Source of the DNA: Bernardetiaceae bacterium
Lineage (GTDB): Bacteria > Bacteroidota > Bacteroidia > Cytophagales > Bernardetiaceae
Assembly (NCBI GenBank): GCA_036822015.1
Contig: DAISIL010000002.1
Location: 75,268-116,592 of the forward strand
Direction of reading: 5' to 3'
DNA: 41,325 nucleotides
Part shown: positions 18,587 through 39,985 of the stretch, in pieces
Layout: the number at the start of each line of letters is the position of its first letter
Position numbering within the stretch: the stretch's first letter is position 1
The notes under the pieces: generated by a model
Database searches by the model: none
What the model was told of the DNA's origin: nothing
The model's input: the letters and a program-made list of their open reading frames with translations, nothing else
Position numbers and translations under genes: made by a program

Positions 18587-19421
18587 TCAGAATAGCTGCA
18601 TCTGTGGTTCAATTTCCTTGACCATCATCTGATGGTAGTCCTCCGTGATTTCGATGCCGATGCTGTGCCGCCCCATCTTTTGCGCAACCCGAAGGGTTGT
18701 TCCTGATCCGGCAAAGGGATCAAGTACGGTATCGCCTGCTTGTGTGAACAGTTTGATGAACCACTCAGGGAGGGAGTGCTTCTGGGAAGGCGGCTGGATG
18801 GTTTTTGTTTTGGCATTCTGTGGCCAGGTGGATCACGTTATTGGGATAAACGGTGTCTTTTCCTACCCAGTTGGCGATCTTCTTTCCAAAACCACTGCCA
18901 TTTTTGGCTGTATCGCGTACTTTATCCGTCTGGCTTAGATTTTTCAAACGCCCCTTTGCCCAGTCTCCAATCGGTACTTTGACGGCATCCTGGTACATGT
19001 TGAATTTTTTCTCTTTGTTGAACTGGAGCAAACGCTCCCAGCTATCTCTGAAGCGGTTCGACCACTTGCCTGGATAAGAATTTTTTTTGTGCCACACAAA
19101 CTCCTCCGTCCAAAGCCAGCCCTGCTGGCGCAAGGATAGGATCAACTCTAGTACATAGGTACTGCGTTCACCATTGACTACTTTCTCCTTGATATTCAGG
19201 ACAAACGTACCTGTAGGCTTGAGGATACGGTGCAACTCCCCCCCAATAGGCAGAAACCAGTCCACGTATTGATCGGGATGAATGCCACCATAGCTATTTT
19301 TTCTTTGGTCGGCATAAGGAGGCGATGTAAAGATGAGATCTACGCTTTGGTCGGGTAACTGTTGTAGTATCTCTCGGCAATCGCCCAAAAATATATCGGT
19401 CTTAATGGTCATCAAGAACAA
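18587..19421 (-). pseudogene. N4/N6 DNA methyltransferase (PF01555-like, beta-class: SPPY motif before FxGxG), disrupted by a +1 frameshift near 18770-18780
   Basis: Frame A gives MTIKTDIFLGDCREIL...DLIFTSPPY...HPAAFPEALPP*. Shifting one base continues EWFIKLFTQAGDTVLDPFAGSGTTLRVAQKMGRHSIGIEITEDYHQMMVKEIEPQMQLF*, the canonical C-terminal AdoMet-binding half. An extra C in tccctccctga explains the break. Confidence 0.7.
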
Positions 19422-19441: not shown

Positions 19442-20080
19442 TTACCAGGGCAAAATTTTACGGAAAAGCCCCTTAGTGGTCTTGGAGATATAGGTCTCTG
19501 CGGCTTCATTTTTTTTGCGTGGAGGATGGGTGATCGCTTCCTGGACATCCTGCACAAACCGCTCATCAAAAAAACCGACGATGTACAACTTGAGCTGGCT
19601 TTGGAGCGTAATTAGCTCGGCAGCAAAGGTAAACACGTAGTTCGGCTGTTGGTGCTGGGCATCAAAGTAAGCCACCAGGCGTTCGGGCTGATAGGTTTGG
19701 GCTTCGGGGACATCACCGATGATCTGTTTTTGCAGGATTTCGGAGTATTTCGTTACCATGGCCGCCGTCAGGATGTTATCGACCTCGAGCAGGATGGCTT
19801 CTCGCATTTCGGGTTGGCCTACCAGGCTTCCAGGCAAGAGCAGCTCGGAGATACGGGGTTCGTCCGTCGGGCTGACGACCAAATAGACCTCGCCCGCAAA
19901 GTCGCCCTTGATGTCGGTACGCAAGACAAAAAACTCACCGTCCACAGCGGGCCAGGTCTTGGGCTGTACCGTAAAGTGATGCACAATGACCTCTTCTTTA
20001 ATCATTTTGCCGAACGCACTGGCCGCGTGTGCTAGTGCCATCTGGGTAATACTCGTTGCAAGTAGGGTGTGATCGCTCAT
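19442..20080 (-). CDS. cheC: CheC/CheX/FliY-family CheY-P phosphatase-like protein
   Basis: Two CheC-type helices. Motif 1 is degenerate (SITQMALAHAASAF versus the EIGNIGAGNAATAL consensus). Motif 2 is intact (LLEVDNILTAAMVTKYS, with E..N conserved). Located 16 bp downstream of cheA. Confidence 0.55.
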   Translation of the reverse strand: MSDHTLLATSITQMALAHAASAFGKMIKEEVIVHHFTVQPKTWPAVDGEFFVLRTDIKGDFAGEVYLVVSPTDEPRISELLLPGSLVGQPEMREAILLEVDNILTAAMVTKYSEILQKQIIGDVPEAQTYQPERLVAYFDAQHQQPNYVFTFAAELITLQSQLKLYIVGFFDERFVQDVQEAITHPPRKKNEAAETYISKTTKGLFRKILPW

Positions 20081-20096
20081 TTCCGGCTGGGTAAGT

Positions 20097-21872
20097 TTAG
20101 TGGCTTGATGCTAGGGTTTCCTGGTGGGTGAGCAAGCCAGAGGTTCTGAACAAAATCTTGATGAGATTGGGAATATCCAAGATGAGGCATACGTTGCCGT
20201 TGCCCAAAATGGTGGCGCCACTAAAAAAATAGATGCTTTCCAGAGGCTTTACGAGGGGTTTTTCGATGATCTCTTTTTGTTGGAGCAAGCGATCAACGAC
20301 CAGTCCTACCGAGCGGTTATCTGCCTGAACAATAATCATGTTCAGCAGGTCGTCCTCGGCGTGTTCGGAAAAGCTCTGCTGCAAGCGACGCGCCTGGTAG
20401 AGGTCCTCCAAACGCTGAACAGCAAAGACATCTCTAAGAAAAATAACCGAAATGGTCTTTTCCTGATGTGTCGTCATCAAGCCTTGCCCCACACGATGAA
20501 TCCGCGATTTGGGAACGGCAATGACGGCTTCGGTGAAGGCAAGCGGAATGGCAAACTCGGCTTCATTGAGAACAAAAAGCAGGGCGTTCTTGACCGCCAT
20601 CGAAGCGGGCAAGCGCAAGGCAAAACTTGTCCCGACACCCAGGGCGGTACGGATCTGGATGCTCCCACCGATCTGGTCAATGGCATTACGGACAACATCC
20701 ATGCCCACGCCGCGCCCCGAAACAGCCGTTACCTTTTCTTTGAGCGAAAAGTTGGGTTCAAAGATCAGGTCGATGACTTCTTTTTCGGTTAGTTTTTGGG
20801 CCATGCTTTCGCTAAACAACCCGCGTTCGATGGCCTTTTGGCGCACGCGCTCGGGGTCTATGCCACGTCCGTCATCAGCTACCTGAATGACGACACTGTC
20901 TTTTAAGTTATTGGCTTCCAGTCGAATAGTGCCTTTGGTGGGCTTGCCTACGCGCTGGCGTTCGTGGGGTTCTTCTAAGCCATGACTGACGGCATTTCTG
21001 ACCAGATGTATCATCGAGTCGGAGATCGTCTGGAGTACGTTTCGATCAATTTCGATGTCTGTTCCTTTCAGGATCAGTTCGACTTCTTTGCCTTCGGTGT
21101 GGGCTACATCTCGGACAATGCGGTGAAACTTCTGAAACAAGAGTTCTACCCGCACCAGACGCGCTCCCATGACGGAGTACTGCAAATCGGAAGTAATCCG
21201 GTTGAGGCGATCAAAGGTGTTGAGGCGCGATTGCCCCTGGCTGCGGTCGTTGGCGATGCGGTCTTTTTCGATGGCCAGTTCACCGACGAGTTTCATTAGG
21301 TCGTCGAGTTTCTTGACCGGTACCTGGATGGCTTCGGCAAAGGTGATCTTGGAGGCTTTTTTGGTTGAGTCGTCCGCTTCGTCTTCGTTGCTTGTCGCGG
21401 CGGGTGTAGGTGTAGGTAGGGGCGTATCCGCTTGTGGCGCCGGTGGGGCGGGTGGGCGTTCAGGTTGGGCTAGGGGGGCATCCTGACGCGAGGCTTGGGC
21501 GTTATCGAGGAGCAGCTTGAGTTTGGCGCGTAGCCCTTTGTAGGATACTTTTTGCCCGGTTTTGAGGGCATCCAGGAGTTCGCCGAGCTTATCGAGGGCG
21601 CGGAAGAGGTGGTTGAAGTCCTCTTTTTCCATGATCCAGCCGTGCTTTTTCATTTCCCCGAAGAGGTCTTCCATTGTGTGGGCCATCTCGGCGATGTCCT
21701 GAAACCCCATACCAGCGGCATCGCCTTTGAGGGTGTGCAGCCGTCGGAAGATGTGGTCGATCAGCCCTGAGTTGCTCAAGTCCTGCTCCAGTTCGGTGAA
21801 GAGCCGGTTGAGTTCTTCGTGATGGTTGAGGGCTTCGCCCATGAAAAGTTCCTTGAGTTCTTCGGTTTTCAT
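20097..21872 (-). CDS. cheA: chemotaxis histidine kinase CheA (HPt-dimerisation-HATPase-CheW-like; no obvious P2 domain)
   Basis: HTLKGDAAGMGF HPt phospho-His motif; RNAVSHGLEE...IQVADDGRGID ATPase motifs; C-terminal CheW-like domain. Confidence 0.9.
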   Translation of the reverse strand: MKTEELKELFMGEALNHHEELNRLFTELEQDLSNSGLIDHIFRRLHTLKGDAAGMGFQDIAEMAHTMEDLFGEMKKHGWIMEKEDFNHLFRALDKLGELLDALKTGQKVSYKGLRAKLKLLLDNAQASRQDAPLAQPERPPAPPAPQADTPLPTPTPAATSNEDEADDSTKKASKITFAEAIQVPVKKLDDLMKLVGELAIEKDRIANDRSQGQSRLNTFDRLNRITSDLQYSVMGARLVRVELLFQKFHRIVRDVAHTEGKEVELILKGTDIEIDRNVLQTISDSMIHLVRNAVSHGLEEPHERQRVGKPTKGTIRLEANNLKDSVVIQVADDGRGIDPERVRQKAIERGLFSESMAQKLTEKEVIDLIFEPNFSLKEKVTAVSGRGVGMDVVRNAIDQIGGSIQIRTALGVGTSFALRLPASMAVKNALLFVLNEAEFAIPLAFTEAVIAVPKSRIHRVGQGLMTTHQEKTISVIFLRDVFAVQRLEDLYQARRLQQSFSEHAEDDLLNMIIVQADNRSVGLVVDRLLQQKEIIEKPLVKPLESIYFFSGATILGNGNVCLILDIPNLIKILFRTSGLLTHQETLASSH

Positions 21873-21874
21873 GG

Positions 21875-22234
21875 CTACTGGATTTTTTGGAGTGCTTTGA
21901 GGAGTTCGTCTTCGGTGAAAGGCTTGGCCAGATAGCCGTTAGCCCCCTGTTGGAGTTCTTGTTGGATCATAGCTTGGTTTGCCAACGAACTGACCATGAG
22001 TATCTTGCCTTTGTATCCACGGGCGCGGAGTTCTTGTACGACATCACCTCCAAAGCCATCGGGTAGGATGTTATCGAGGGTGATGATAGCGGGCTGTAGG
22101 CTTTGGGCAAGGGTAAGGGCCTCCTCGGCTTTGTCCGTAACGCCAACGACGGTATATTTTCCTGCCAGGGCATTGCGGATCACCTCTTGCATGTACTTAG
22201 AATCTTCGACGATCAGGACGCTGTTACGGCTCAT
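21875..22234 (-). CDS. cheY: CheY-like single-domain response regulator
   Basis: 119-aa REC domain (VLIVEDS, IITLDNILPD, KPF). Confidence 0.85.
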   Translation of the reverse strand: MSRNSVLIVEDSKYMQEVIRNALAGKYTVVGVTDKAEEALTLAQSLQPAIITLDNILPDGFGGDVVQELRARGYKGKILMVSSLANQAMIQQELQQGANGYLAKPFTEDELLKALQKIQ

Positions 22235-22240
22235 GGGTGT

Positions 22241-22612
22241 TTATTTGTTTTTGGTCATCACCTCTTGAATGGCATCCAGGAGCTGCTCGGAGGAGAAAGG
22301 CTTGACGATGTAATGATCCGCTCCGAGGCCCATACCGGCATTGATAACCGACTGCTGCCCAACGGCACTAATCATGATGATCCTGGCATTGACGCTCTCC
22401 TCCTTGAGGGTGCGGATGATGTCCAGCCCCAGCATATCGGGCAAGATATTATCCAGCGTGATGAGGTCAGGCTGTAGCTCCAGGGCCAAGTCGATGGCAC
22501 TCTCACCGTCGGCGGCCTGCCCAACGATCTGGTAGTTGTTCTCCTCGAGGGCTTCCTTAATGACGGTTCGCATATAGAGCGAGTCGTCCACGATCAAGAC
22601 ACGTGTTGTCAT
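22241..22612 (-). CDS. cheY: CheY-like single-domain response regulator (tandem paralog)
   Basis: 123-aa REC domain (VLIVDDS, LITLDNILPD, KPF). About 70% DNA identity to the neighbouring cheY over the core. Confidence 0.85.
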   Translation of the reverse strand: MTTRVLIVDDSLYMRTVIKEALEENNYQIVGQAADGESAIDLALELQPDLITLDNILPDMLGLDIIRTLKEESVNARIIMISAVGQQSVINAGMGLGADHYIVKPFSSEQLLDAIQEVMTKNK

Positions 22613-23091
22613 AGTTCTTGTTTTGAGATTACCTTAAAAATATCAATCAAAATGATGAGTCGATCTTCGCCCACTCGGGCAATCCCCTCCACGTAGTTGC
22701 GCTCCGCGATCACTTGCGGGGAGCGGTCGATGTCAGCCTCGGGGATACTTAGCGTATTGGGTACCTGCCGAACAAGCAGCCCCATGTTGTGTTCCCAGCT
22801 CTCCACAACGAGTGTGTAAGGGGGTAGGGCATCGCTGCCTGGGTGGGGCAAGTCAAACTTTTTTTCTAAATCGACGATAGCCAGGATGTTGCCCCGTACA
22901 TTGGCGATACCGGCGATGTAATCGGGGGACATCGGGACGGCGGCGACCTTTGGCGTAGCCACGACTTCCTTGATCTGTTCGATGGACAAGCCATACTCCT
23001 CCTGCCCAAGCCGAAAGACGATGATTTGGGCGATCTCTTTGCTCCCCCGTGTATCGTTGAGGAGTGTGGCTGTCTGTAGTTGCTCTTGCAT
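22609..23091 (-). CDS. cheW: chemotaxis coupling protein CheW
   Basis: 160-aa CheW-like domain (IVFRLGQEEYGLSIEQIKEV...VRGNILAIVDL). ATGA overlap with the downstream cheY. Confidence 0.85.
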   Translation of the reverse strand: MQEQLQTATLLNDTRGSKEIAQIIVFRLGQEEYGLSIEQIKEVVATPKVAAVPMSPDYIAGIANVRGNILAIVDLEKKFDLPHPGSDALPPYTLVVESWEHNMGLLVRQVPNTLSIPEADIDRSPQVIAERNYVEGIARVGEDRLIILIDIFKVISKQEL

Positions 23092-23103
23092 CAGGTGAGG
23101 GGA

Positions 23104-26100
23104 TTAGACAAGTTTGAAGCGGCTAACCCCTGTTTTGAGCGTACCGGAGAGCTTGGCGAGTTCCTTACTGACAGTGGCAACCTCATCGACCGAACTTTGA
23201 AGCGTTTCGGATGACTTGGTGGCATCCTCTGTTCCTTTGGCAGTCTGGTGAGAGACCTGCACGATGCGTTGGATGTTGCTGGCTACCTGCGTGATGATCT
23301 CCTTTTGACCGCTGGTGGCTTCGGAGACACTGCGGGACAAATCCAGGGTTTCGCGGCTAGAATCGGAGATGTTCTCAAAGACCTCTCGGGCTTCTTTGGT
23401 GGCTCGGTTGCCGTTTTCTACGCTGTTTTTCATCCGATTGATAGAATCGGCGGCGGTGTTGATGTCTTTGGATACATCCTTGATGACCCGCTCGATGTCC
23501 GTAGCGGATCGTCGGGAATCCTCGGCTAGCTTTCGTATCTCTTCGGCAACGACGGCAAAGCCACGTCCGGCATCTCCGGCTCGGGCTGCTTCGATGGCAG
23601 CATTGAGGGCCAGGAGGTTGGTTTGGGCAGCAATGTCGGTGATGACACTCAAGGCACGGGAGATTTCATCGGAGCGATCGGAGAGCGTGCTGATGGAAGA
23701 GCTGGTGCGGTTGGCGGTCAGGTCGATCTGGCTCATCTCTTGTACCAGTTGTCGGATGATTTTCATCCCGTCGTCGCAACGCTGCATCCCTTTTTCGGCG
23801 GCTCCTCGGATGATACCCGCCTGCTGTCCTGTTTCGTCGGCACTCTTGATGACCTTCTCGACGAGTTGGGTTGCCTGATCGGTTTGTTGTACCTGCTGGT
23901 GCATCCCGTCGTTGATATTGACGATGGTCTTGACGACGCTTTGGGCATCTTTTTCCATGCCCTCAAATCGCTGCTCGAGTAGGTGAGAGGATTGCCCTAA
24001 CGTAACGGCACTGCTTTCGAGGTCTTTCAGGATCACGTTCAGGCTCTGGATGGCGTTGTTCATCGCCTGTCCCATGGCTTGAAGCTGCCCGGTGGCGGCG
24101 TAGTTGAAGGAGGTCGTTAGGTCTCCTTCGGAGAGCGACTGGATGACCCGCTTGATGTCCAGGATGGGTTCGGAGATGGAGCGGAGCAGTTCGTTTACCG
24201 AGTCAGCTAAGAGTTTCCAGGAACCCCTTGCGCCTTCGATGTTGAGGCGTTCGTCGAGCTTACCCTCCTTACCAGCAGCCTCCACGACGCGCTTGATTTC
24301 GGTGATAATGCTTCGGAGGTTATCGCGGAGGTTGATGGCGTTGCCGATCATCTTCCCGATGTCTCCTTCAATGCTTACGCCTTCGAGTTGGATTTCGGCA
24401 TCGAAGTTACCCTGGGAGAGGGCATCTACGAAGTTGCTCAAAGCCATGGAAGACTGCCGAAGGTCGGTTACGTTTCGGGCGTACTTGACAACTTTCAAGA
24501 AGTTGCCTTCACCGTCCGTGATCGGGGTGTAGTTGCCTTCGAGCCAGATGCGCTTGCCTGCTTTGTTTAGGCGCGGGTATGTCCCAAAGAGTGCCTTACC
24601 ACTGCGGAGGTCATCCCAGAACTCGCGGTACTCGCGGCTGTTGCGATAGACTTCATCACAGAACATGGCATGTGCCTTCCCGATGAATTCCTCACGCTGG
24701 TACCCCATCGCTTCCAGGAATCGGTTATTGGCCGAGATGACAACCCCCTCTCGATCAAACTCCACGACGAGGTTAGTCCGGTTGATGCCCTGGAGCTTGC
24801 CTCGGTTTTCGGCGTTACGGGTGCGGCGTTCGGTGGCATCCTGAGCAAACTTGACGATCTTGAGCAGTCGTCCGTCGTCATCCGTGATGGGGGTGTAGCT
24901 ACCCTCGAGCCAGATGCGTTGTCCGGCCTTGCCGATACGGGGGTAGGTATCAAAAACGGCTTCTCCTTGTCGGAGTTTTTTCCAGAGGTCTTGGTAGGTG
25001 CTGCTGTTGATGTGGTTTTGATCGCAGAAGAAACTGTGAGGCTTGCCGATGACCTCTTCGAGGGTATAGCCGCTGGTTTGGAGGAAGTTTTCGTTGGCGG
25101 TCAGGAGCCGGCCTTCAAAATCGTACTCTATGACGATGTTGGTGCTATTGATCCCCTCAAGTTTGCCTCGGTTTTCGGCGTTGCGTCGCTTGCGCTGGGT
25201 TACATCGACGGCAAGGGTCAGGATGCTGGACAGGTTGCCGCTTTGGTCATAGATCGGGCTAAACGATTCCTGGATGAAAACCTCTCGCTTATCCTTCGTG
25301 ATCCTTCGGTAGTCGCCAAAGAGGGTCTTTCCCTCTCGAAGGGTTTGCCACATTTCTTTGTAGCTCGGTGAGGCGACCTCCTCGGGCTTGCAAAGGAAGC
25401 TATGGTGCTTGCCGATCAGTTCATCTCGGGTGTAGCCCACAAAGTCAAGGTAGGTTTTGTTTGCGTCCAGGATTTGCCCTTCGGGTGAGAGTTCGATTGT
25501 ACCGTTGGATTTGCCGATGGCAAAGTTTTGGGCTTCTATGCGGGCGGTTTGTTCGATGCGATCCGTGATGTCGATGCGGAAGCCGAGATACTTGTAGATG
25601 TCGCCGTTTTCGTCTCGGACGGGGGCAATCGTAGCATCGACCCAATAGGTGCGTCCATCTTTGGCGCGGTTGCGGTAGGTTCCCTGGAAGATGTTTCCTG
25701 CCTGGATGGTTTCCCACATCTCTTTGAAGATGGTTTTGGGTGTCTCGGGATGGCGGATGATGCTATGCGGCTTACCGATGAGTTCGGCTTCGGTGTATTG
25801 GGCGACTTCACAAAACTTATCGTTGGCATACGTGATGCGCCCTTGCAAGTCGGATTCACTCAGAAGAGCCACCTTGCTGATGACCTTCAGACGTACCTCG
25901 AGTTCGTTTTGGAGGCGTTGTAGCTCCAGTTCTCGTTGTTTTTGTGCGGTGATGTCGATACGGAAGCCCAGATACTTGACAATCTCACCTTTTTCGTTCA
26001 GGATGGGGGCAATGGAGGCATCGACCCAGTAATCTGTACCGTCTTTGCGGCGGTTTCTGATGGTCTTTTGGAAGAGCTTACCGGCCTTGATCGTATCCCA

Positions 26101-29100
26101 CATCTCCTTGTAGATGCCTTTGGGGTTATCGGGATGGCGGACAATGTTATGGGGTTTGCCTACGGCTTCGGTGTTGGTGTAGCCGGAGACCTCCGTAAAC
26201 TTTTCGTTGGCAAAAGTGATCGTTCCGTAGATGTCCGTTTCAGTAACCAGAGCCACCTTGTCGATGATCTTCATTCGGGCTTCGAGTTCGCCTTGGAGGC
26301 GGCTGGCTTCGAGTTCAAATTGTTTTTGTTCGGTGATGTCGTTGCAGAGACAGGTAACGCGCTCGAGATGCCCCTGCTGATTGAGTATCGGGATATAACT
26401 AGCCCGTAGCCAAACTTCTTTTCCTGCTTTGGAGAGCCGCTTGGCATCTCGAACAAAAGAAACACCTCTGCCAATCTCGTCCCATAACTGATCGTATTTA
26501 CCCTCTCGGATTTGATCCTTAGCCACATAGAAGTCATGGGTTTTGCCCAGAACTTCGGTTTCGGTGTAGCCAAACAGCTCGGCAAAGTTGTCATTGATCG
26601 TGATGACGCGGCGTTGGGCATCGAAGTCAATACGTATCGTGGAGGTATTGATGGCCGAGACGTAATCATCGAGTTCTTTTTGCTGGGCTTTGATCTTCTC
26701 TCGGGCGGCTTTTTCTTCGGTAATATCGCGCATCGAGACCCGAATCAGGGTGCGTTCGTTCAGGTCAAAACTGATAAGGCTGATCTCGGCATCCCATAGC
26801 GTGCCGTCCGTTCGTAGGTGCTGCCACTCAAAGAGTGTACTGCCTTCGTCGATGGCGCGTTGGATGTGCCTCAGGGGGGTGGCTTCACTGTCGCTGCCGT
26901 CGGGTTGGGTAGTCGGGGAGAAGTCGATGGGTGTTTTGCCGATGATGTCTTGCTCTGTGGCCTTTTCTCCGCCAAAGAGTGCGATGGCAGCGGCATTGGC
27001 ACTGGTAAAACTCCCCCCTTCAAGGACGAGCAGCCCGTAGTTGGAGACCTCAAAGAGTTTGCGGTTGAAGGCAGCATTGGCTCGAATTTCGGCTTCGAGA
27101 CGTTGGCGTTCTTCGGCTTCCATGACGGAGGTGATGATCTCCGGTATGGCACGAAGAAACTTTTGGTCATCGCTTGTCCAGTGATAGGCTGTTGATCCTA
27201 CGTGTTCGATGCACAAAACACCCATGATCTCCCCTTTGAAGCGCACCGGCACATCGAGCAAAGATTGTATTTGATTCGGCTTAAAGTAGCCTTCGGTGAA
27301 CTCCCGCGTGTCGGGGTCTGTTTGTGCCTCTGATGCTACGATAAGCGTACCCCGCTTCAAGGCTGCAAAATAAGACGGGAAATCTTTTTGATGCAGCACC
27401 AAAGGGTCGTTGGAGAACTGCTGTTGGCTGCGTTGGTAGAGTTGCTGACACGTAATGAAACTTTGATCGGCGTTGTAGTGCCAAAAACTTGCCCGTTCGA
27501 CATGTACCCCTTCGGCAACCGACCTCAGGATTACCCGAATGGCTTCGTCTCGGTTACCTGCTTGAACATCTTTATTGATGGGCAGACGGTTTAGGATGTC
27601 ATTCTGCCGATTGAAGCGGATTTCGCGGGCTTTTTCTTCCGTGATGTCGCGGACGTTGGCGTAGATGAGTTCTTTTTCATAGACGGGAGCCGAGTTCCAT
27701 TGGAGCCACACATAACTACCGTCTTTTTTGCGGTAGCGGTTCTCGAAGGAGATAACCGTCGCCCCATCGGCGAGTTTGCCGGCCTCCTGGAGGGTAGCGG
27801 CTACGTCGTCTGGGTGAACAAATTCAATGAAGGGCTGGGCTTTGAGTTCGTCCTTGGTGTAGCCCAGGAGGTTCATCCAGTTTTGGTTCAAGAACTTGAA
27901 GTAGCCATCGAAGCCAGCAATACAGAGCAAGTCAATCGACTGGTCAAAGAAGGTGTTGAAGCGTTGCTCGCTTTCGCGGAGGGCATTTTCTTTGGCTTTG
28001 CGCTCGCTGATGTCTTCGCTGATATCGAGGTAGCCCAGAACTTCTCCAGCGGCATTGCGGACGGCGGTTACCGAAAGCACGATGGGGTATTTGCTGCCGT
28101 CTTTGCGGACGTAATGCCACTCGCGGATGTCTGGTTTTCCCGTCGTGCGGGTGCGATAAACAAAGGTCTCGAATCCAGGGCTTAGATCAAGTCCCATCTC
28201 CTGGTTGAGTTCGTGGGTACGGGCAACGACCTCCTCGGGGTCATGGATCAAGGCAGGCGTTTGCTTACCGATCATCTCCTCGGCGGTATAGCCCAGGTCG
28301 CGCTCGGCGGCTTCATTGAAAATGTTAATGACCCCATCGGCATCGGTAGAGACGACGGCAAAGCCCGCGCTTTCAAGGACGGCGCGTTGGTAAGCCGTTG
28401 CCTCCTCAAGGGCGATTTGTTTGTTGCGGATGTCGGTGATGTCGGAGTGAGAACCAGCCATGCGGTAGGGCTTGCCCGTCGGATCGAATAGGGCTTTGCC
28501 ACGCGCCCGAATCCAGCGGTAGCTGCCGTCCTGGTGTTGCATCCTGAACGAGACATCGTACTCGGGCAACTGTCCGGCAAGGTAGCCATTGAGGGCGTTT
28601 TCTACCTGGGGGAAGTCCTCTGGATGCACCAAAGCCTGAAACTGCGCGAAGTTATCTGCAATATCTTGCGGGGCATAGCCCAACATGGCTTTCCAGCGAT
28701 CGGAGAAGAAAATATCGTTCGTGCGCATGTTCCAATCCCATACGCCGTCGTTGCTGCCCTGCAAGGCTAGGTTGAAGCGTTCTTCGCTTTCTGCTACGCG
28801 GTTCTGGATCCGGCGGCGTGTACTCACATCCCGCAGGAAGCCCACAAACTCCGTGATGCCATCCTGCTGACGCACAACCCTGGATTGTACCCGAATCCAT
28901 TTTTCGGTTTGTGTTTGGGCGGTCTTTATCCTGAACTCTACGTCGTAAAGTGCCTTGGTTTGGATCGAATGTGTGATCCGCTCCTGGATCAAGGGTAGGT
29001 CTTCGGGATAAACCAAGCCAAACATGGTGTTGGCATCTTGGAGGGCGGCTTCGGGTTCGACTTCATAGACCTCCCGTACCTGCTCGCTGATGAACGTAAT

Positions 29101-30408
29101 CCGTGAAGTTCCTTCGTCGGATACTTCAAAGCGATAGATGATCCCGGGAACGGTAGCGATCAACTCCTGGCTATCTTGCTGCTGGGCTTTGAGCGCCTGC
29201 TGGGCTTGGATGCGCGGCGTAACATCTCGGATGATACCGTAAGACTCGTACTCCTCCGATGCCTGATCGACGCTGGAGTCTAGCTTGACCCAGATCACAT
29301 CGCCGTTTTTCTTCGTGATCCGAAACTCCATCGCTACGCCACTTCGTTGGGCGATGGATTGGCGCATTTTGGCTTCAAAATCAGATTTGTCATCCTGATA
29401 AATCAAGCTCCAGTACATCTCGGGGTTGGTCATCACCTCTGCGGGTGTATAGCCAAACACCTGCTCAGCATAGGGGCTTAGATAGGTGAAATAGGGCAGC
29501 CCTTGGGCGTTGAGCTTGGCTCGGTAGATCACCCCCGGGACGGTATCCAGGACGCGCTGGAAGGCTGCCTCGTTGGTTTCGGCTTTGAGTTGGGCGGTTT
29601 TGCGGATCGTTACGTCCCTAAAAATTCCGACAAACTCTACCTCATCGGCGTTTACGTATTCGACCCGTGATTGGGCGCGTATCCAACGAATTTTGTCTTT
29701 GACAAAGATGCGGTACTCATAATCGAAGAAGCCTTGCTTGGCTACGGCCTCTGTGATAGCTGCCTGTACGCCGGGTAGGTCGTCGGGATGAATCACCGCC
29801 AGCACTTTGGAGAAATCCTGTAGGGCTTCCTCGGCTGGAACGCCGTAAATATCTGCCATCTGCGGGCTAAGGTAGCGAAAGAGATACTCGCTCGTGTGCC
29901 GGGCCACGAAGCGATACAAGACCCCTGGCACGGTATGGATGAGGGTCTTTTGGTTTTCGATCTCTTCCTGGCTGTCCGACGAGATGCTGGGCTGGTCTTG
30001 GAGGGGCTGGATCAGTTGGAGGATTTTGTAGGGGCGATCCGAGGCATCCAGCAGAGGGGTATAGGCGATCTGGGCCGTGATGGTGCGTCCTTCTTTGTCG
30101 ATCAACTCAAAGTTTCCCGAAAAGGGTTTTCCGCCTCGGAGCGATTCCCACACGTTGGCGTGTCGTCCGTTTTGGCGGAAGGCTTCGGTGTGTAGGGCGC
30201 GTTCGGACTTGCCTTTGAGTTCGTCGGCGGTAAATCCCAGCCAACGGACAAAAGGGGCGTTGGCGGTCAGGATTTGTCCTTGCATATCTAGCTCGAGGCT
30301 AGGCACAAGGGCGTGCAAGGCGGCTTTGAGCTGCTGGCATTCGTTGCCGGTGGCGTGGCTCTCCTGCGGGATCAGACTATCTTTGTTGAGGTTGTCTCCA
30401 AGTGCCAT
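23104..30408 (-). CDS. giant (2434 aa) cytoplasmic methyl-accepting chemotaxis protein: about 14 PAS/PAC domains plus one GAF, HAMP-like linkers and a C-terminal MCP signalling domain; no TM segment
   Basis: C-terminal [37 protein letters not shown] signature. Many repeats of the PAS pattern (...[39 protein letters not shown]...). GAF block at [16 protein letters not shown]...GVLCIEHVG. No hydrophobic helix at the N-terminus. Confidence 0.9.
24440..25200. repeat. tandem duplication, 2 x about 366 bp, inside the MCP gene (two adjacent near-identical PAS domains with an RR(T/K)RNAENRGKL linker)
   Basis: ttgcctcggttttcggcgtt recurs at about 24797 and about 25163. aacttgac...ccgtgatgggggtgtag...cgagccagatgcg recurs at about 24484 and about 24850. 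Confidence 0.7.
25566..26340. repeat. tandem duplication, 2 x about 383 bp, inside the MCP gene (two adjacent PAS domains, about 75% nt identity)
   Basis: gtgatgtcgat(g/a)cggaagcc(g/c)agatacttg occurs at 25566 and 25949, with colinear similarity through ...gcatcgaccca...tcccacatctc...gggatggcgga... A third partial start is at 26333. Confidence 0.75.
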
Positions 30409-30470
30409 AGTGCTTGTGGGTTATTTCTTTTATTGTTTTTGTTTAGGTCTGCAATTTCTTTGCCGTTCCA

Positions 30471-31229
30471 TCAAAAGATGGTTAAAGTCATCACCTCCAT
30501 TGCCAGGACGTGATACGCCTTCGCGCTTGGGCTTTCGGGGCTGTATGCCAGGATACTTTTCCCGAAAGAAGGAGCCTCGATGGCGCAAGCATCATCGGGG
30601 ATGTAGGTTTTGAGCAAGCGGATGCCCAAATGCTGTTGTAGGTAGGCATACACTTCATGGCTCACTTGCTTCTCGGGGCGTACCATGACGGGCAAGACCC
30701 CGATTGTTTTTAAGGTAGGATTAAGGCTACCCCGCACGCGATCCATCGTTCGGATCACCAGGCCTAGGCCCTGGACACTCAAAACCTCGAGGAGCATCGG
30801 GATCAAGGTGTATTGAGCCGCTACCAGGGCATTGACCGTCAGGACGGACAAGGCCGGGGAGCTATCAATCAGCACAAAATCGTAGTCCGAGGCTTGCTCG
30901 GCGATGATTTCCTTTAAGATGTACTCCCTGCGGGCGTTTCCGGTCAGGGTGAGTTCGGTGTCGGCTAGTTCTACGCCGGTGGGGGCGATGTCCATGTTTT
31001 CCTGGCGTAAGATCACGTTAGATAGAGAACGTTCTCCTTTGAGCACCTCCGAAAGCGTATGCGGGTAGTTGGTCAGTCCAAGGTAATAGGTCAGGCTTCC
31101 CTGGGTGTCCAGGTCGATGAGCAAGACGCGCTTCCCCATCTGTGCTAAGGCACTGCCCAGGTTTACGGCTGTGGTTGTTTTGCCGGTGCCGCCTTTTTGG
31201 TTTACGATGGCAATAGTGATAGGAGCCAA
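30471..31229 (-). CDS. ParA/MinD-family P-loop ATPase (PpfA/ParC-like, first gene of the chemosensory operon)
   Basis: Deviant Walker A IVNQKGGTGKTTTAVNL; 252 aa; 62 bp upstream of the giant MCP. Confidence 0.85.
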   Translation of the reverse strand: MAPITIAIVNQKGGTGKTTTAVNLGSALAQMGKRVLLIDLDTQGSLTYYLGLTNYPHTLSEVLKGERSLSNVILRQENMDIAPTGVELADTELTLTGNARREYILKEIIAEQASDYDFVLIDSSPALSVLTVNALVAAQYTLIPMLLEVLSVQGLGLVIRTMDRVRGSLNPTLKTIGVLPVMVRPEKQVSHEVYAYLQQHLGIRLLKTYIPDDACAIEAPSFGKSILAYSPESPSAKAYHVLAMEVMTLTIF

Positions 31230-31312: not shown

Positions 31313-33505
31313 TTATTCTTTGTTTTCAGGGCTTATCCGTACACCGATCACCAAAATATCGTCGATTTGTTTGTGGCTATTGCCCATCCACTCGCCAATG
31401 CGCTGATCCAGGGCTAGCTCCTGATTATCCATATCGCGCGCTGCGATTTCTAGGAGCAGTTGCCTAAAGCGTCGGCTCATAAATTTTGCGCCCTTAGGGC
31501 CACCAAACTGATCCTGGTAGCCATCCGAAAAGAGATAAAACATCGTCTCTTCCCGAATGGAGATACAGTGCTGCCGAAACGGTGGGCTTTGGTCGCTTTG
31601 TACACCCCCGATGGCTCGGCGTTCTCCCTTGATATAGAAGAGTTCACCTCCCTGCACATAGACCAGTGGGTTGTGTGCGCCGGCAAAACAGAGCTGTTGC
31701 TGCGCGTAGTCGATGGTACAGAGGGCGACATCCATGCCGTCGCGGTTGCGGGTCGTGGACTGGCGTAGGGCGCGCCGGATGCCCTGGTTGAGTTCTTCGA
31801 GGATTTGTTGGGGTTCGGTGATGTCGCGGCGATAGACGATTTCGTTCAGGAGATCATTGCCGATCATGCTCATCAGTGCGCCCGGGATGCCGTGTCCGGT
31901 GCAATCGACGACGGCCAGAATTTGTCGGTTGTTTTGTACACCAAACCAATAAAAATCACCCGAGACGATGTCTTTGGGGACGTAGTAAATAAAAAATTCG
32001 GAGAGATGCTTTTTGATCTGTTTCTTTTGGGGCAGTAGCGCCAACTGAATCCTTCGGGCATAGGTCATGCTGGATAGGATTTCGTTGTTGGTCTGCTGGA
32101 GTTTTTCTTTTTCGGCTTGCAGCTCTCGGGTGCGTTCTTGCACCTGGCGTTCGAGTTTTTGTTGGAGGGCGCGTTCTTGTTCGAGTAGTTTGCGCTCCAT
32201 GGCCTTGGTTTCGGTTACGTCTTGTCCCGTCCCAAAAATCTTGATGGGCTTTCCTCCCTTGTCCTTCAAGACGGTTCCGCGTGAGTGGAGGATGCGTATT
32301 TGTCCGTCTTGCCGTACGATGCGCTGAAAGAAGTCAAAGGCATCGCCTTTCTCGATTGCCTGCCGGATGGTACTCCTAACGCGGTCGCGGTCTTCGGGAT
32401 GCACCCGCTTGAAGGAGTTGTGGTAGGCGGGGAGGTACTCTTTGGGGTCGTAGCCATAGAGGCGGTAGAGTTCATCCGACCAGGTAACGGTGTTATTGAC
32501 CATATCCCACTCCCAACTGCCCATACGGGCCAGGCGTTGGGCTTCGGCTAGCTTTTGTCGGCTGGCTTCGAGTTCGGCTTCGGCTTTTTTGCGTTCGGTG
32601 ATGTCTTGTACCTGCACAATGACCATGGGTTGGGAGCGTTGTAGCACCCTCGAGAAGTTCACTTGGCACCAGCAGACCTCCCCCGATTTGTGCAGCAGTC
32701 GCCACTCAACGGGATGGGTGGGTAGCCCGCCGCTTGTGGGGTAGTCTTCGGGAAAAACCAACTGCTCAAATTGGTTGTAGCGCAACTCTACCTTTGCGTA
32801 GCCCAAAATCTGGGTGATGGCACTATTGACCCGCTCAATGCGTCCGTTTTCTTCCCAAAAAATAATCATCCCACTAGGCGAGCTTTCGATGATATGCACC
32901 AGGTCTTGGCGGCTCTCGTTGATGAGTTGTACATCCAACTGCGACTGTCGCTCTTTGAGCAACCCGTACAGGTGCGACCCAATGGCACGTCCCATGCGCC
33001 CAAGCAACTCGAGATCGCGTTTGGCAATCTCCCTCGAGCAGAGGATTTCTAGGATGCCGTGGATTTGTCCGTTGTAGGTCAGGGGAGTACTGACCAAAGA
33101 AAGTTGCTGCGTGGGGTCTTCGGGTGGGGTGTAGCCCGGGAAAGACCCAATAATAACTGCGGCATCGTTGGTGTGAAAAGGCAGGAGGTGTTCCTTTTGG
33201 TAGCGCATCACGGCCCGATTGCGGTAGCTGCGATAGGGCATCCACTCCTCCACGGCTTCGGTGTGATAGGCAAAGGGTTCAAACGAACTGTGTTCGGCGT
33301 GGTAGCCGTAGATGACCCCCTGGGCAAAGTCCATCAGTTCGGCGACCACCGCCAAAACACCCGCTCCCCAGCCCTCCGTGGTATCGGTTTCCTTCCAATG
33401 GAGGGCAGACTGGAGTTGTGTGATGGCAGCGTCAATGGCTTGCTTCTCCAAAAAGGCTTTCTTGTATAGGCGCAAGTCGTCTATCGGCTCATCGGGTAAT
33501 TGCAT
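31313..33505 (-). CDS. GAF-PAS-PAS sensor fused to a PP2C/SpoIIE-family Ser/Thr phosphatase
   Basis: N-terminal GAF, two PAS domains (…ITERKKAEAELE…, …VTETKAMERKL…), a coiled coil, and a PP2C domain with VSGDFYWF, VDCTGHGIPGALM, DGMDVALC and DDILVIGVR. The phosphatase core is about 75% nt-identical to that of the 6654..8174 gene. Confidence 0.85.
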   Translation of the reverse strand: MQLPDEPIDDLRLYKKAFLEKQAIDAAITQLQSALHWKETDTTEGWGAGVLAVVAELMDFAQGVIYGYHAEHSSFEPFAYHTEAVEEWMPYRSYRNRAVMRYQKEHLLPFHTNDAAVIIGSFPGYTPPEDPTQQLSLVSTPLTYNGQIHGILEILCSREIAKRDLELLGRMGRAIGSHLYGLLKERQSQLDVQLINESRQDLVHIIESSPSGMIIFWEENGRIERVNSAITQILGYAKVELRYNQFEQLVFPEDYPTSGGLPTHPVEWRLLHKSGEVCWCQVNFSRVLQRSQPMVIVQVQDITERKKAEAELEASRQKLAEAQRLARMGSWEWDMVNNTVTWSDELYRLYGYDPKEYLPAYHNSFKRVHPEDRDRVRSTIRQAIEKGDAFDFFQRIVRQDGQIRILHSRGTVLKDKGGKPIKIFGTGQDVTETKAMERKLLEQERALQQKLERQVQERTRELQAEKEKLQQTNNEILSSMTYARRIQLALLPQKKQIKKHLSEFFIYYVPKDIVSGDFYWFGVQNNRQILAVVDCTGHGIPGALMSMIGNDLLNEIVYRRDITEPQQILEELNQGIRRALRQSTTRNRDGMDVALCTIDYAQQQLCFAGAHNPLVYVQGGELFYIKGERRAIGGVQSDQSPPFRQHCISIREETMFYLFSDGYQDQFGGPKGAKFMSRRFRQLLLEIAARDMDNQELALDQRIGEWMGNSHKQIDDILVIGVRISPENKE

Positions 33506-33616: not shown

Positions 33617-35158
33617 CTAGCGTTTTTGAGAAATGCGGGTCAGGGTCGGCATCAAGTAGGCGCATCCGACCTGCCAGGTCAAGGGTTGGTAGTTGCCGTT
33701 GGGGGAGCTAATCTGGGAGAGACCGCCGATCAGTTTCCAGTCGTTGTAGGCGTAGGCCAGGCTCAGTCCGTACTCGAGGTGTATGCCCGATCCGCGATCA
33801 ATACCCCCACCGCCGCCGGCCCCGAGGTAGAGCGGGAGGGAGATTTCGAGGGTGCGCTGGCGCAATACCTGTTTGTGTAGCCCCAGCCCGAGTAGCCCTT
33901 CGGCATAAGCACCGTAGTCGCCGCCGAGGTAAGCCCAGCGGGTCTGTCCTGCCAGGCTCAACCAGGAGCGAAGGTAGCGACGTGCGCCCATGACGAGTAG
34001 CCCCATGTCGCGGTAGGGGAGTTGGTTTTTGTCGGTGATGCCCTGCGGGGCCAGGTACTGCTGATGCCCAAAGTAGATTTCGGTTTGTCCGCTTTTGAGG
34101 CTATCCGAAGGGATAAGTAAGGTAGGTTTTGCCTTTACGGCTAGGTAGTTGAAGGAGCGCATCCCGAAGCCTACTTCAAAGTGCCTGGCCGAGAGTTTTC
34201 CGTCAGGGGCAAATGTTTCTCCGGCTGAGGCTCTCAAAAAGTAGCCCTGCCAGAGGTTTAAGTTGAGGGCTAACTCGGCTTGTAGGGTTAGTCCGCCGCC
34301 TGTCAGGACGGCCCCGCCGCCGCTGTTGCCGGCCAGCCCGCGCAGCTCGGCCGAAAGCCGGTTTTGGCTGTTGGTTGTCAGTCCGGCTCCCAGGAGATAG
34401 CTCATGTAGCCGTCGATGCCGCCGAGGCCGGCACCGTATAGCTCAAGGGTAGCGTAGAGGTGCTTGGCCAAAAAATAATCATACTGAATCCCGAGCAGCC
34501 CCACGAGCTGATCGTAGTCGTAGTCGGGGCGAACGACGGATCCCTCCCGCAGGTGGTAGTTGAGGAAGCTCACCGCTAGGCGGTGTTGAGCTGGTGCTGG
34601 GGTGTGCCAGGTCGTCGATTTGGTAGGAGCATACAAAAATCGGGTATTGAGGCTAAGCCCGAGGGCAGCGTATGTCCCCGAAAGACTGCCTGTCAGGAAG
34701 TTGTGATGAACAATTTCGCCGCGTATGCCAGCCTGCCCCACCCGATACTCGAGGGCTACATGGGGGCGTACCGCGATGCCGTCGCCATCAGGGGCAGCCG
34801 CGCCACCGCCACCCCCCAAAAAAAAGCCGACATCCAGCAGCCACTTCGGATGCAAAAACGGCGCGTAGCCCACCTGCCCCCCAAAAGTAAACAACCCACC
34901 AAACTGCCCTACCGTCGCCGAGTAAGACCCCAGCCCGAGGTACAAACGCGGCAGGGCCGGCACCAGCCCAAAGGCATCCACGCCAATACCGACTAAGCCC
35001 ATATCCGCAAAGTCGCGGAGTGGCATCTGTTCGTAAGACAAACGCACCCGCAGGTCTTTGAATGGCAGTTGCTCTCCCTGAGATTGGGCATAACCCCAGC
35101 TGCTCATCCCCAGCCAAATCAAGCACGCAGATAGGGTTCGCAAAAGTGGTATCGGCAT
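33617..35158 (-). CDS. putative outer-membrane beta-barrel protein (Gly/Tyr-rich, signal peptide)
   Basis: Start moved to MPIPLLRTLSACLIWLGMSSWGYAQ (ATG 35158..35156). It shows the alternating amphipathic pattern typical of porin-like beta-barrels and a Gly-rich loop. Confidence 0.45.
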   Translation of the reverse strand: MPIPLLRTLSACLIWLGMSSWGYAQSQGEQLPFKDLRVRLSYEQMPLRDFADMGLVGIGVDAFGLVPALPRLYLGLGSYSATVGQFGGLFTFGGQVGYAPFLHPKWLLDVGFFLGGGGGAAAPDGDGIAVRPHVALEYRVGQAGIRGEIVHHNFLTGSLSGTYAALGLSLNTRFLYAPTKSTTWHTPAPAQHRLAVSFLNYHLREGSVVRPDYDYDQLVGLLGIQYDYFLAKHLYATLELYGAGLGGIDGYMSYLLGAGLTTNSQNRLSAELRGLAGNSGGGAVLTGGGLTLQAELALNLNLWQGYFLRASAGETFAPDGKLSARHFEVGFGMRSFNYLAVKAKPTLLIPSDSLKSGQTEIYFGHQQYLAPQGITDKNQLPYRDMGLLVMGARRYLRSWLSLAGQTRWAYLGGDYGAYAEGLLGLGLHKQVLRQRTLEISLPLYLGAGGGGGIDRGSGIHLEYGLSLAYAYNDWKLIGGLSQISSPNGNYQPLTWQVGCAYLMPTLTRISQKR

Positions 35159-35258
35159 CGTTTTTACTTTTTTTGATCGAAAGAAAACCAAAGATACAGC
35201 AGCAGGGCAAGGATAAAAAATAAATCATCCAAACGAACCATCCCTCCCTGGAGTTGTT

Positions 35259-39268: not shown

Positions 39269-39636
39269 GCTTCTTCGGAGGTTTCGGTCTCGGAGGTTTT
39301 TTTGGTGCGTCGGGTAGAGGTCTTCGTCTTGGTGGGCGCGGGGGTCTCTCCTTGGGCAGTTTCGAGGGCTTTGACGCGCTCTGCCAGGGTGTTTACGTCG
39401 GAGGTCGTGGCAAAGTTGAGGGATTTCATCAGTTTTTCTACCAATCCGCTCAACTGCGACTCGAAGTCTTCTTTTTTGTCGCCGGTGGTCTTGACGAAGT
39501 CATCCATGATCTTGCGGCCCTCTTCGACGGAGAGTTTTTTCTCGTCCACCAGCTCATCGACGAGTTGGGTAAACTTATCGCTGGTCAGGGAGACCAGTCC
39601 AACGCCAGTGTAGATTAAATTTTTGATCGTTTCCAT
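39265..39636 (-). CDS. phasin-family-like small helical protein (paralog 2 of 3) with Thr/Lys-rich C-terminal tail
   Basis: LIYTGVGLVSLTSDKFTQLVDELVDEKKLSVEEGRKIMDDFV. ATGA overlap with paralog 1. Confidence 0.5.
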   Translation of the reverse strand: METIKNLIYTGVGLVSLTSDKFTQLVDELVDEKKLSVEEGRKIMDDFVKTTGDKKEDFESQLSGLVEKLMKSLNFATTSDVNTLAERVKALETAQGETPAPTKTKTSTRRTKKTSETETSEEA

Positions 39637-39688: not shown

Positions 39689-39985
39689 TTATTTGCTTTG
39701 CTCGGCTTCCAACTCTTTGATGCGGGCTTCGAGTTTTTCGATTTCGGAGCGGGGAGCAAAGTTAAACTGGGCGATGACGCGCTCAATGACCTGGTTGAGT
39801 TGCTGCTCGAACTCTTCTTTGCGCGTTTCGGTGGACTGAAAAAACTTATCGACGATTTCCTTGCCCTCTTCGCGGGAGAGTTTTTCGTCGCTCACCAACT
39901 GGTCGATGGTTTGGCGAAACTTGTCGGTGGTCATCGAAACCAAACCAACACCGGTGTAAATGAATTTTTTGATTAAATCTTCCAT
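39689..39985 (-). CDS. phasin-family-like small helical protein (paralog 3 of 3)
   Basis: Start at MEDLIKKFIYTGVGLVSMTTDKFRQTIDQLVSDEKLSREEGKEIVDKFF (ATG 39985..39983). The ORF-track upstream extension is rejected. Confidence 0.5.
   Translation of the reverse strand: MEDLIKKFIYTGVGLVSMTTDKFRQTIDQLVSDEKLSREEGKEIVDKFFQSTETRKEEFEQQLNQVIERVIAQFNFAPRSEIEKLEARIKELEAEQSK

Follow-up and report, generated by a model that had tools for sequence, protein, structure and literature searches.

A ParA-like ATPase gene and a tagged giant soluble chemoreceptor in an apparently methylation-free Che operon of a Bernardetiaceae bacterium

A stretch of 41,325 nucleotides from a Bernardetiaceae bacterium (Bacteroidota; GenBank assembly GCA_036822015.1, contig DAISIL010000002.1, positions 75,268 to 116,592 of the forward strand; hereafter the window, with positions counted from its first letter) carries a genuine chemotaxis-type signalling operon of a Bacteroidota-specific family, in which the gene of a ParA-like ATPase lies directly upstream of that of a giant soluble methyl-accepting chemotaxis protein (MCP). 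Taking the parts of the evidence together, we consider it probable that this is a soluble-receptor Che operon operating without receptor methylation, whose ParA would act through a short N-terminal tag on the receptor, probably on a matrix other than the nucleoid.

A chemotaxis-type operon and its family

According to the list of open reading frames (ORFs) of the window, seven closely packed ORFs occupy positions 19442-31229 on the minus strand, separated, in the order from parA to the cheC-like gene, by 62, 12, -4 (an ATGA overlap), 6, 2 and 16 bp. Proteins identical to those of the window are annotated from a Bernardetiaceae metagenome-assembled genome of the order Cytophagales (MGF1532217-MGF1532223). 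The seven ORFs encode a Soj-like ATPase of the ParA/MinD family (30471..31229; 252 residues, TTG start, deviant Walker A motif KGGTGKT), the MCP of 2434 residues (23104..30408), CheW (22609..23091; 160 residues, Pfam CheW, E = 6e-31), two CheY proteins (CheY1, 22241..22612, 123 residues, Pfam Response_reg; CheY2, 21875..22234, 119 residues, likewise recognized by Pfam), CheA (20097..21872; 591 residues, identified with Pfam, NCBIfam CheA and by alignment), and a divergent 212-residue protein that is a candidate CheC-fold phosphatase for phosphorylated CheY (19442..20080). An MCP signalling domain, CheW, CheA and a CheY receiver, the core of a Che-type pathway, are co-encoded as judged with Pfam and NCBIfam. 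The original prediction, made from the letters of the DNA, had counted eight co-directional genes in this range; its gene identities are all supported, that of the CheC-like protein by its fold, but the range holds seven genes, the eighth, a DNA methyltransferase gene, falling outside it. On the parA side the run is headed, as its first co-directional gene, by that of a 730-residue PAS-PAS-PP2C (SpoIIE-type) phosphatase (31313..33505, minus strand; Pfam PAS_3 and SpoIIE), 83 bp from parA, and the co-directional run also takes in an unannotated ORF of 524 residues. Scanning of the window for sigma-70 promoters and terminators gave counts at shuffle expectation, Bacteroidota promoters being different from the sigma-70 consensus; Rfam and tRNA scans of the window gave no matches, and neither did exact-sequence look-up of the window CheA and of the protein P0121.

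A genome scan with a CheA alignment yielded 80 related loci, all annotated as, or resembling, Bacteroidota, in which genes were identified by ORF calling (each start placed at the longest extension) and by blastp comparison (E < 1e-6) with the proteins of the window as well as with the CheB and CheR of one locus (L006). The genera include Flammeovirga, Reichenbachiella, Fulvivirga, Chryseolinea, Ohtaekwangia, Aureispira and many Cyclobacteriaceae, and the canonical order of the family is [ParA]-MCP-CheW-CheY-CheB-CheA-CheC-like-CheR, with the CheC-like gene 3' of cheA in almost all loci and with ParA present in 36 of the 80, in many genera, adjoining an MCP or a CheW-like gene. In a metagenomic relative (L001/L004), whose ParA and CheA are 75% and 70% identical to those of the window, the genes follow one another as PP2C-ParA-MCP (2392 residues)-CheW-CheY-CheY-CheA-CheC-like before unrelated genes begin; in L012, ParA followed by a giant MCP is kept and the PP2C gene is missing. 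Almost all MCPs of the family are devoid of transmembrane segments, with or without ParA, so that the pairing of ParA with a soluble MCP, from which a segregated cytoplasmic array had originally been deduced, is not peculiar to the window locus. The same distribution led us to reject the idea that the presence of ParA tracks soluble as opposed to membrane-bound MCPs.

An N-terminal tag that accompanies ParA

MCPs encoded directly 3' of ParA open with the sequence MALG[DNK]N[LIVM]KK[DE]xLIP, a form of which constitutes residues 1-14 of the window MCP (30367..30408, minus strand), a putative ParA-partner peptide. The corresponding tag reads MALGNNINKDSLIP in L012 and MALGENMNKDNLIP in L001, in the latter case when the start is moved six codons upstream to an in-frame ATG (L001 10910-10927; the database call of a 2386-residue MCP, with its start at 10928, begins six codons late). 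The strict motif is present in 18 of the 21 MCPs with ParA directly upstream, as against 4 of the 42 without (Fisher p = 2.9e-9, uncorrected for shared ancestry), and in a six-frame translation of the surveyed loci and the window, all 40 occurrences at the head of an ORF of at least 100 residues fall on genes for MCPs or CheW-like proteins. The gene 3' of ParA in loci of the Reichenbachiella type encodes a protein of 255-359 residues that ends in a CheW domain, as ParP does, and it is this protein that carries the tag (MALGKNVKKDKLIP). Partner proteins generally engage ParA/MinD ATPases via charged N-terminal peptides, and the gene neighbourhood predicts the cargo (PMC10241942). Because the tag covaries with ParA and because of this general rule for partner peptides, we infer that it may serve as a ParA-binding label, with the chemosensory array as the cargo. 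The functional link between ParA and the receptor that had been proposed at the outset is supported, at the level of sequence, by this covariation and by the synteny of the ParA-MCP pair in the relatives. The tag also loosely resembles the N-terminal motif of ParB (GLGRGLEALLP in Thermus thermophilus Spo0J and GLGRGLSALL in Caulobacter crescentus ParB), the position of the ParB arginine being occupied by N, D or K, a likeness that serves as a lead only.

It could be argued that the ATPase serves ordinary partition, or is an orphan in decay, and stands beside the che genes by chance, and that the MCP peptide plays some other role, for example in DNA binding as in FrzCD, which binds the nucleoid via a basic N-terminal tail (PMC5716589); the best structural relatives of the window ParA are chromosomal Soj proteins, and some homologs of about 50% identity are orphans located away from che (L003, L013). 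However, the ORFs scanned in the window contained no ParB domain, and a search for parS gave no match within three mismatches, so that the possibility of a canonical partition system, which had been named as a test of the prediction, finds no counterpart in the window, where the neighbours of ParA are the PP2C and MCP genes. Moreover, the recurrence of ParA at che loci of many genera, the retention of the tag when the gene downstream of ParA switches from MCP to CheW, the intact Walker motifs of all four members of the window clade, and the content of just one to three lysines in the tag, far below the needs of a DNA-binding tail, all speak against a chance association, which is already disfavoured and which we regard as highly improbable.

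Two further kinds of ParA arrangement were observed in the survey. In L031, L045, L050 and L061, a more divergent ParA (35-37% identical) is encoded on the opposite strand, downstream of cheR, and the MCP of this subgroup begins with MVLGKN, a variant of the tag without the LIP end. The solitary homologs of L003 (10001-10759) and L013 (2987-3739), about 50% identical and having the KGGTGKT variant, lie away from both che and parB, one of them in the vicinity of genes for a SpoIIE phosphatase and for a GAF-PAS sensor.

Lineage and DNA-binding positions of ParA

The window ParA contains the motifs NQKGGTGKTTT (Walker A), LIDLDTQG (Walker A') and VLIDSSP (Walker B) of the ParA/MinD superfamily (Pfam AAA_31/CbiA, E = 8e-50), and its best match in the PDB is T. 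thermophilus Soj (E = 2e-46, 40% identical). It is 36-51% identical to the che-linked ParAs of Bacteroidota, which have the KGGTGKT variant in common and form a clade of their own, apart from ParC, in a neighbour-joining tree (no bootstrap support), and it is 31% identical to Pseudomonas putida ParC. The latter reference is one of the Pseudomonas proteins that the query sequence matched with about 90% identity, and its nature was verified from the genes around it (cheZ-cheA-cheB-motCD-parC-parP-cheW) and from the P. putida literature. The window ParA is not an ortholog of ParC, which had originally been named as an analogue; given the low identity, the separate clade and the lack of the MALG tag on ParP, the ATPase and its tag belong, as far as sequence comparison goes, to a family distinct from ParC.

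In CcParA, R195 and R224 are conserved DNA-binding arginines; the equivalent residues have been linked to the binding of DNA in ParA homologs, PpfA and PomZ, and in the structure of HpParA it is the R221-V223-R224 loop that touches the DNA (PMC7229837). At these positions, D-x-R-[RK] and I-R-x-N-V-[KR] are retained by most che-linked ParAs of Bacteroidota, for example in Chryseolinea and Flammeovirga. In the clade of the window ParA, the residue equivalent to R195 is E in the window protein and in P0003 and Q in P0002, with R kept in P0004, and the R221-N-V-R224 loop reads D-D-A-C in the window and D-D-E-R, D-D-E-Q and D-D-E-C in the other three members. The C-terminal region has a net charge of -1 to -5 in this clade, compared with +2 in Soj and +5 to +6 in ParC, although the charge is only partly discriminating, the rest of the family ranging from -3 to +4 and overlapping with the window clade. 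These replacements suggest that ParAs of the window clade bind the nucleoid in the canonical way less well or no longer, and nucleoid partitioning in the manner of PpfA is therefore not the default expectation.

A precedent is the ppfA-tlpT pair of Rhodobacter sphaeroides cheOp3, in which the ParA gene stands next to that of a soluble receptor, as at the window locus. If the window ParA worked exactly as PpfA does, it would use the nucleoid as a nonspecific matrix, the array would be split and segregated, and the N terminus of the MCP would stimulate the ATPase, a mechanism that has been described for PpfA (PMC11407121) and that would be compatible with the position of parA directly upstream of a soluble MCP, with the conservation of the tag, and with the basic residues that most che-linked ParAs of the family keep at both DNA-binding positions. 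Set against this are the E, Q and E found in place of R195 in three of the four clade members and the D-D-A-C loop of the window protein, at positions implicated in DNA binding in PpfA itself (PMC7229837), together with the negative C-terminal charge, and an exactly PpfA-like operation consequently appears unlikely to us. Of the ParA-segregated cytoplasmic array originally envisaged, then, the link between ParA and the receptor is supported, while nucleoid-based partitioning of the PpfA type is doubtful.

A soluble receptor with 14 PAS domains

Pfam assigns to the MCP a signalling domain (MCPsignal, E = 2e-41), HAMP, GAF and multiple PAS domains. A hidden Markov model built from the PAS repeats of the receptor itself brings their number to exactly 14, seven on each side of the GAF domain, in accordance with the estimate of roughly 14 PAS domains and a GAF domain upstream of the signalling domain that had been made beforehand; the layout is the tag, seven PAS domains (residues 40-929), GAF (953-1088), seven PAS domains (1129-1987), a HAMP region (about 1995-2124) and the signalling hairpin (2130-2434). 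The expected lack of a transmembrane helix was confirmed by hydropathy, the maximal Kyte-Doolittle mean over 19 residues being 1.35, with no segment above 1.6. Compared with the 36H receptor Tsr of Escherichia coli, both arms of the signalling domain are lengthened by insertions of 14 residues, one symmetric pair lying near the tip and the other in the methylation region, which corresponds to 22 heptads per arm, the criterion used for the 44H class; with about 154 residues from HAMP to the tip and about 156 from the tip to the C terminus, the hairpin is assigned to approximately the 44H length class, as judged from the alignment and these lengths.

The MCP of the nearest relative, L001, has 15 PAS domains, one of them (residues 960-1065) lying where the window MCP has GAF, a difference that amounts to a domain swap within otherwise colinear giant receptors. 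In L054 (4960-5370; Pfam Bac_globin) the MCP begins with a bacterial globin domain, and similar N termini are found, across several genera, in L032, L035, L063, L064, L071, L073 and L076; in L054 and L064 the MALG tag is internal, directly behind the globin, which suggests that the globin was recently fused ahead of a tagged receptor.

Loss of the methylation enzymes and of a methylation site

Neither cheR nor cheB was detected anywhere in the window by tblastn, as originally claimed, no catalytic domain of either protein being present, and both CheB and CheR are also missing from the loci whose CheAs are nearest to that of the window (L015, L018, L022, L017 and L019) and from L001 and L008; several of these near relatives carry very large MCPs (1313-2090 residues). 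In most related loci the slot between CheY and CheA is occupied by CheB, and in the window by CheY2. The loss of CheB and CheR is, by comparison of the loci, a derived state in a family that normally has both. The receptors have changed in parallel: the site equivalent to Tsr E493, within the motif A-x-G-T-[EQ]-[EQ]-V-A-S-S, is kept in 58 of the 62 MCPs of loci with CheB or CheR, whereas the [EQ][EQ] pair occurs in none of the seven MCPs of clusters lacking both enzymes, being E-D in the window (Fisher p = 3e-7, uncorrected for shared ancestry). Since the methylation pair has decayed in the loci without CheB and CheR, it would appear that methylation has been abandoned, rather than the enzymes being merely encoded elsewhere.

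CheA, the two CheY proteins and a candidate CheC-like phosphatase

CheA consists of Hpt (with H46), dimerisation, HATPase and CheW domains and has no P2 domain. CheY1, the conserved CheY of the cluster family, has D9, D10, D54, S82, Y101 and K104 and is 87, 81 and 65% identical to CheY of L001, L008 and L006, respectively; CheY2, the CheY paralog in the CheB slot, has E10, D11, D54, S82, Y101 and K104. That CheY2 might be a remnant of the CheB receiver was considered and rejected, as it does not resemble that receiver, whereas its identity with CheY amounts to 43-44%.

The 212-residue protein gave no match in Pfam and a weak match to CheC in NCBIfam (E = 1e-3). Its AlphaFold model (pLDDT, the predicted local distance difference test, of 73) has Thermotoga maritima CheC as the best PDB match in Foldseek (1xkr, E = 6e-9), followed by FliY and CheX. 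The active-site consensus of CheC, CheX and FliY is D/S-x3-E-x2-N-x21/22-P (PMC12887009). An invariant block, EMREA.LLE.DNI...G..P, shared by this protein and seven database homologs corresponds to E99-x2-N102-x22-P125, and the whole second site reads A95-x3-E99-x2-N102-x22-P125, with A where the consensus has D or S. No such motif is present in the first helix of the protein, where the first active site of CheC would be, so that only the second site is kept. The cheC-like assignment made earlier is upheld by the predicted fold and the retained E-x2-N...P motif, and at this level the protein is a candidate CheC-type phosphatase for phosphorylated CheY.

Output of the pathway

[quoted passage not shown] No flagellar genes are present in the window. 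Stand-alone CheY proteins together with a CheC-type phosphatase are the usual layout for fast control of motility. Putative chemoreceptor arrays have been seen in the cytoplasm of gliding Aureispira, for which the authors suggest chemotaxis (bioRxiv 10.1101/2024.01.29.577165), and an Aureispira metagenome-assembled genome (MAG) carries the same cluster family (L063).

The PP2C gene, a possible accessory or output element of the pathway, has an ortholog, 61% identical, in the same position in L001. Genes of the same PP2C subfamily are found in 14 of the 80 related loci, directly 3' of cheR in nine of them, and L006 has a pair of a receiver and a PP2C gene; because of this recurrence, a functional link of PP2C to the che cluster is plausible. 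It is conceivable on these grounds that the system does not serve taxis at all, but is a pathway of alternative function, with the linked PP2C as its output (in partner switching, development or gene expression) and with ParA only organising the complex. The position of PP2C at the head of the co-directional run, its conservation in L001, the lack of flagellar genes in the window and the lack of CheR and CheB in the lineage would fit such a pathway. Nevertheless, the outputs encoded in the cluster itself are stand-alone CheYs and a CheC-type phosphatase, most loci of the family, L012 included, are without PP2C, the window revealed neither a STAS nor an anti-sigma partner, and the window PP2C has PAS sensors of its own and no receiver domain. 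We hence regard an output by way of PP2C as rather unlikely, although less so than a PpfA-like operation of ParA, and retain the control of gliding as the leading candidate. A second SpoIIE/PP2C gene, encoding 506 residues, is located at 6654-8174 (minus strand), about 11 kb from the che cluster.

Other genes of the window

The frameshifted N6/N4 DNA methyltransferase pseudogene (18587..19412, minus strand; Pfam N6_N4_Mtase) adjoins the cheC-like gene. Its frameshift, already recognized in the original prediction, was verified: the N-terminal part runs from 19412 to 18765, with the Pfam match limited to this part, and the C-terminal part, containing DPFAGSGTT, continues in another frame to 18587. 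The shift occurs near 18765-18790 (minus strand) in a C-rich run (CTCCCTCCCTGA), and deletion of one C restores ...ALPPEWFIKLF...DPFAGSGTT; it could be either a true pseudogene or an error of MAG assembly. The gene is absent from the orthologous locus L004 and is therefore a neighbour outside the conserved cluster, not a member of the operon as had been supposed. The six genes upstream of it have consecutive protein accessions.

The 524-residue ORF of the co-directional run (33617-35191, minus strand), 111 bp upstream of PP2C, is glycine-rich, has an N-terminal hydrophobic leader and no Pfam match, and may encode an outer-membrane protein. Unrelated to che is a gene at 8282-10756 (plus strand) for a protein of 824 residues containing three TIR domains (TIR_2, E = 1e-63, in three stretches), which may function in defence or in nicotinamide adenine dinucleotide (NAD) signalling. 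At the end of the window there is a Cas6-like gene (40317-41141, plus strand), with no CRISPR array in the last 2.5 kb of the window and with an apparently gene-poor stretch upstream that contains a 145-nt direct repeat in two copies of 72% identity (39483-39627 and 39829-39973).

Discussion

Putting these parts together, a mechanism may be proposed in which the 14 PAS domains and the GAF domain of the soluble 2434-residue receptor integrate intracellular signals, and the receptor, with CheW, controls the P2-less CheA. CheA would phosphorylate both stand-alone CheYs, from which the divergent CheC-fold protein would remove the phosphate. With CheB and CheR lost, the second CheY in the place of CheB, and the methylation pair of the receptor decayed, the kinetics of a phosphatase and a phosphate sink probably replace methylation. 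ParA would recognise the tag MALGxN.KK..LIP on the array component that is encoded just 3' of its gene, here the receptor and in other genera a ParP-like long CheW. In view of the covariation and of the rule for partner peptides, ParA would thereby govern how a cytoplasmic array is assembled, positioned or inherited, and the positioning matrix is probably not the nucleoid in the manner of Soj or PpfA, given the acidic and neutral residues that stand for arginines. The candidate outputs would be the control of T9SS-dependent gliding and the linked PP2C phosphatase.

Several observations weigh against this mechanism. The search for cheR and cheB covered the window, and the genes may still exist elsewhere in the genome. 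The link between tag and ParA is one of sequence covariation, and neither Fisher test, that for the tag or that for the methylation pair, takes shared ancestry into account; the tag occurs on a few MCPs without ParA in the flank covered (L049, L065), and a few MCPs adjacent to ParA are without it (L022, L073, L076). The tag of the window clade is, in addition, poorer in lysines and has D at the position of the arginine in the LGRGL motif of ParB, so that stimulation of the ATPase may differ or be absent, and the loss of the DNA-binding arginines may instead mean that ParA is decaying. We still hold the tag-dependent, methylation-free operon to be the probable reading. Going further, we offer as a tentative and rather doubtful extension that the Bacteroidota possess a ParA positioning system for cytoplasmic arrays, apart from ParC/ParP, with a peptide address on the receptor or on a CheW-like adaptor, and that the Bernardetiaceae ATPase, having given up the canonical nucleoid-binding surface, operates on another matrix or as an ATP-dependent regulator of assembly or signalling in a methylation-free array that steers gliding, PpfA being compared here by its description only.

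That ParA-like ATPases position chemosensory arrays, and that arrays can be cytoplasmic, is already established, and the organization described here is worth comparing with those systems. In PpfA-TlpT of Rhodobacter (Cereibacter) sphaeroides cheOp3, likened to the window system by description, a ParA-like ATPase of the che cluster is likewise encoded beside a soluble receptor that forms a cytoplasmic array (PMC11407121), and the N terminus of the receptor is the proposed partner of the ATPase. In contrast to PpfA, whose counterparts of the ParA arginines are implicated in DNA binding, the window ParA has E and C at these positions; its host is a non-flagellated gliding member of the Bacteroidota, its receptor has about five times the size, and CheR and CheB are absent. 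The ParC-ParP systems of Vibrio and Pseudomonas similarly comprise a ParA-like ATPase within the che cluster and a partner that inserts into the array, as predicted here from sequence, and the sister loci of the Reichenbachiella type even have the architecture of ParP (partner region at the N terminus, CheW domain at the C terminus) after the ATPase. However, the window ParA is only 31% identical to ParC and belongs to a separate clade, the N terminus of ParP is without the MALG tag, the window has no ParP and bears the tag on the receptor, and ParC systems tether membrane arrays to the polar landmarks HubP/FimV in polar flagellates. FrzCD of Myxococcus xanthus is also a soluble receptor for gliding-type motility, forming cytoplasmic clusters that are organised relative to the nucleoid (PMC5716589), but it binds DNA directly by its basic tail, without ParA, where the window system has ParA and a tag, and the Frz system has CheR and CheB homologs, whereas the window system has lost methylation. 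With F1-type Che systems of Thermotoga and Bacillus, the window operon shares the signalling domain of approximately 44H length and a candidate phosphatase of the CheC fold with the E-x2-N...P part of the active site; this protein is nonetheless so divergent that the Pfam CheC model does not recognize it, it has one site only, and the window is without CheD and flagellar genes.

To our knowledge, gradient sensing and Che-like output in non-flagellated, T9SS-gliding Bacteroidota are essentially unstudied, and the literature searched on chemosensory systems of Bacteroidota contained nothing on this cluster family, its ParA clade, a transferable tag, or the subclade with giant receptors, without CheB and CheR, and with a ParA devoid of the DNA-binding arginines. 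The family occurs in cultured relatives (Flammeovirga, Fulvivirga, Chryseolinea, Ohtaekwangia and Algivirga), which makes experiments feasible, and the Aureispira carrier, itself an uncultured MAG, belongs to a genus with cultured members. The naturally occurring ParAs, some of which keep and some of which lack the DNA-binding arginines, and the clade in which adaptation by methylation appears to be lost and the methylation site is visibly decayed, both provide testable handles. Altogether, the family offers a candidate 14-residue 'luggage tag', which would move between receptor and adaptor and by which chemosensory arrays may be coupled to a ParA ATPase.

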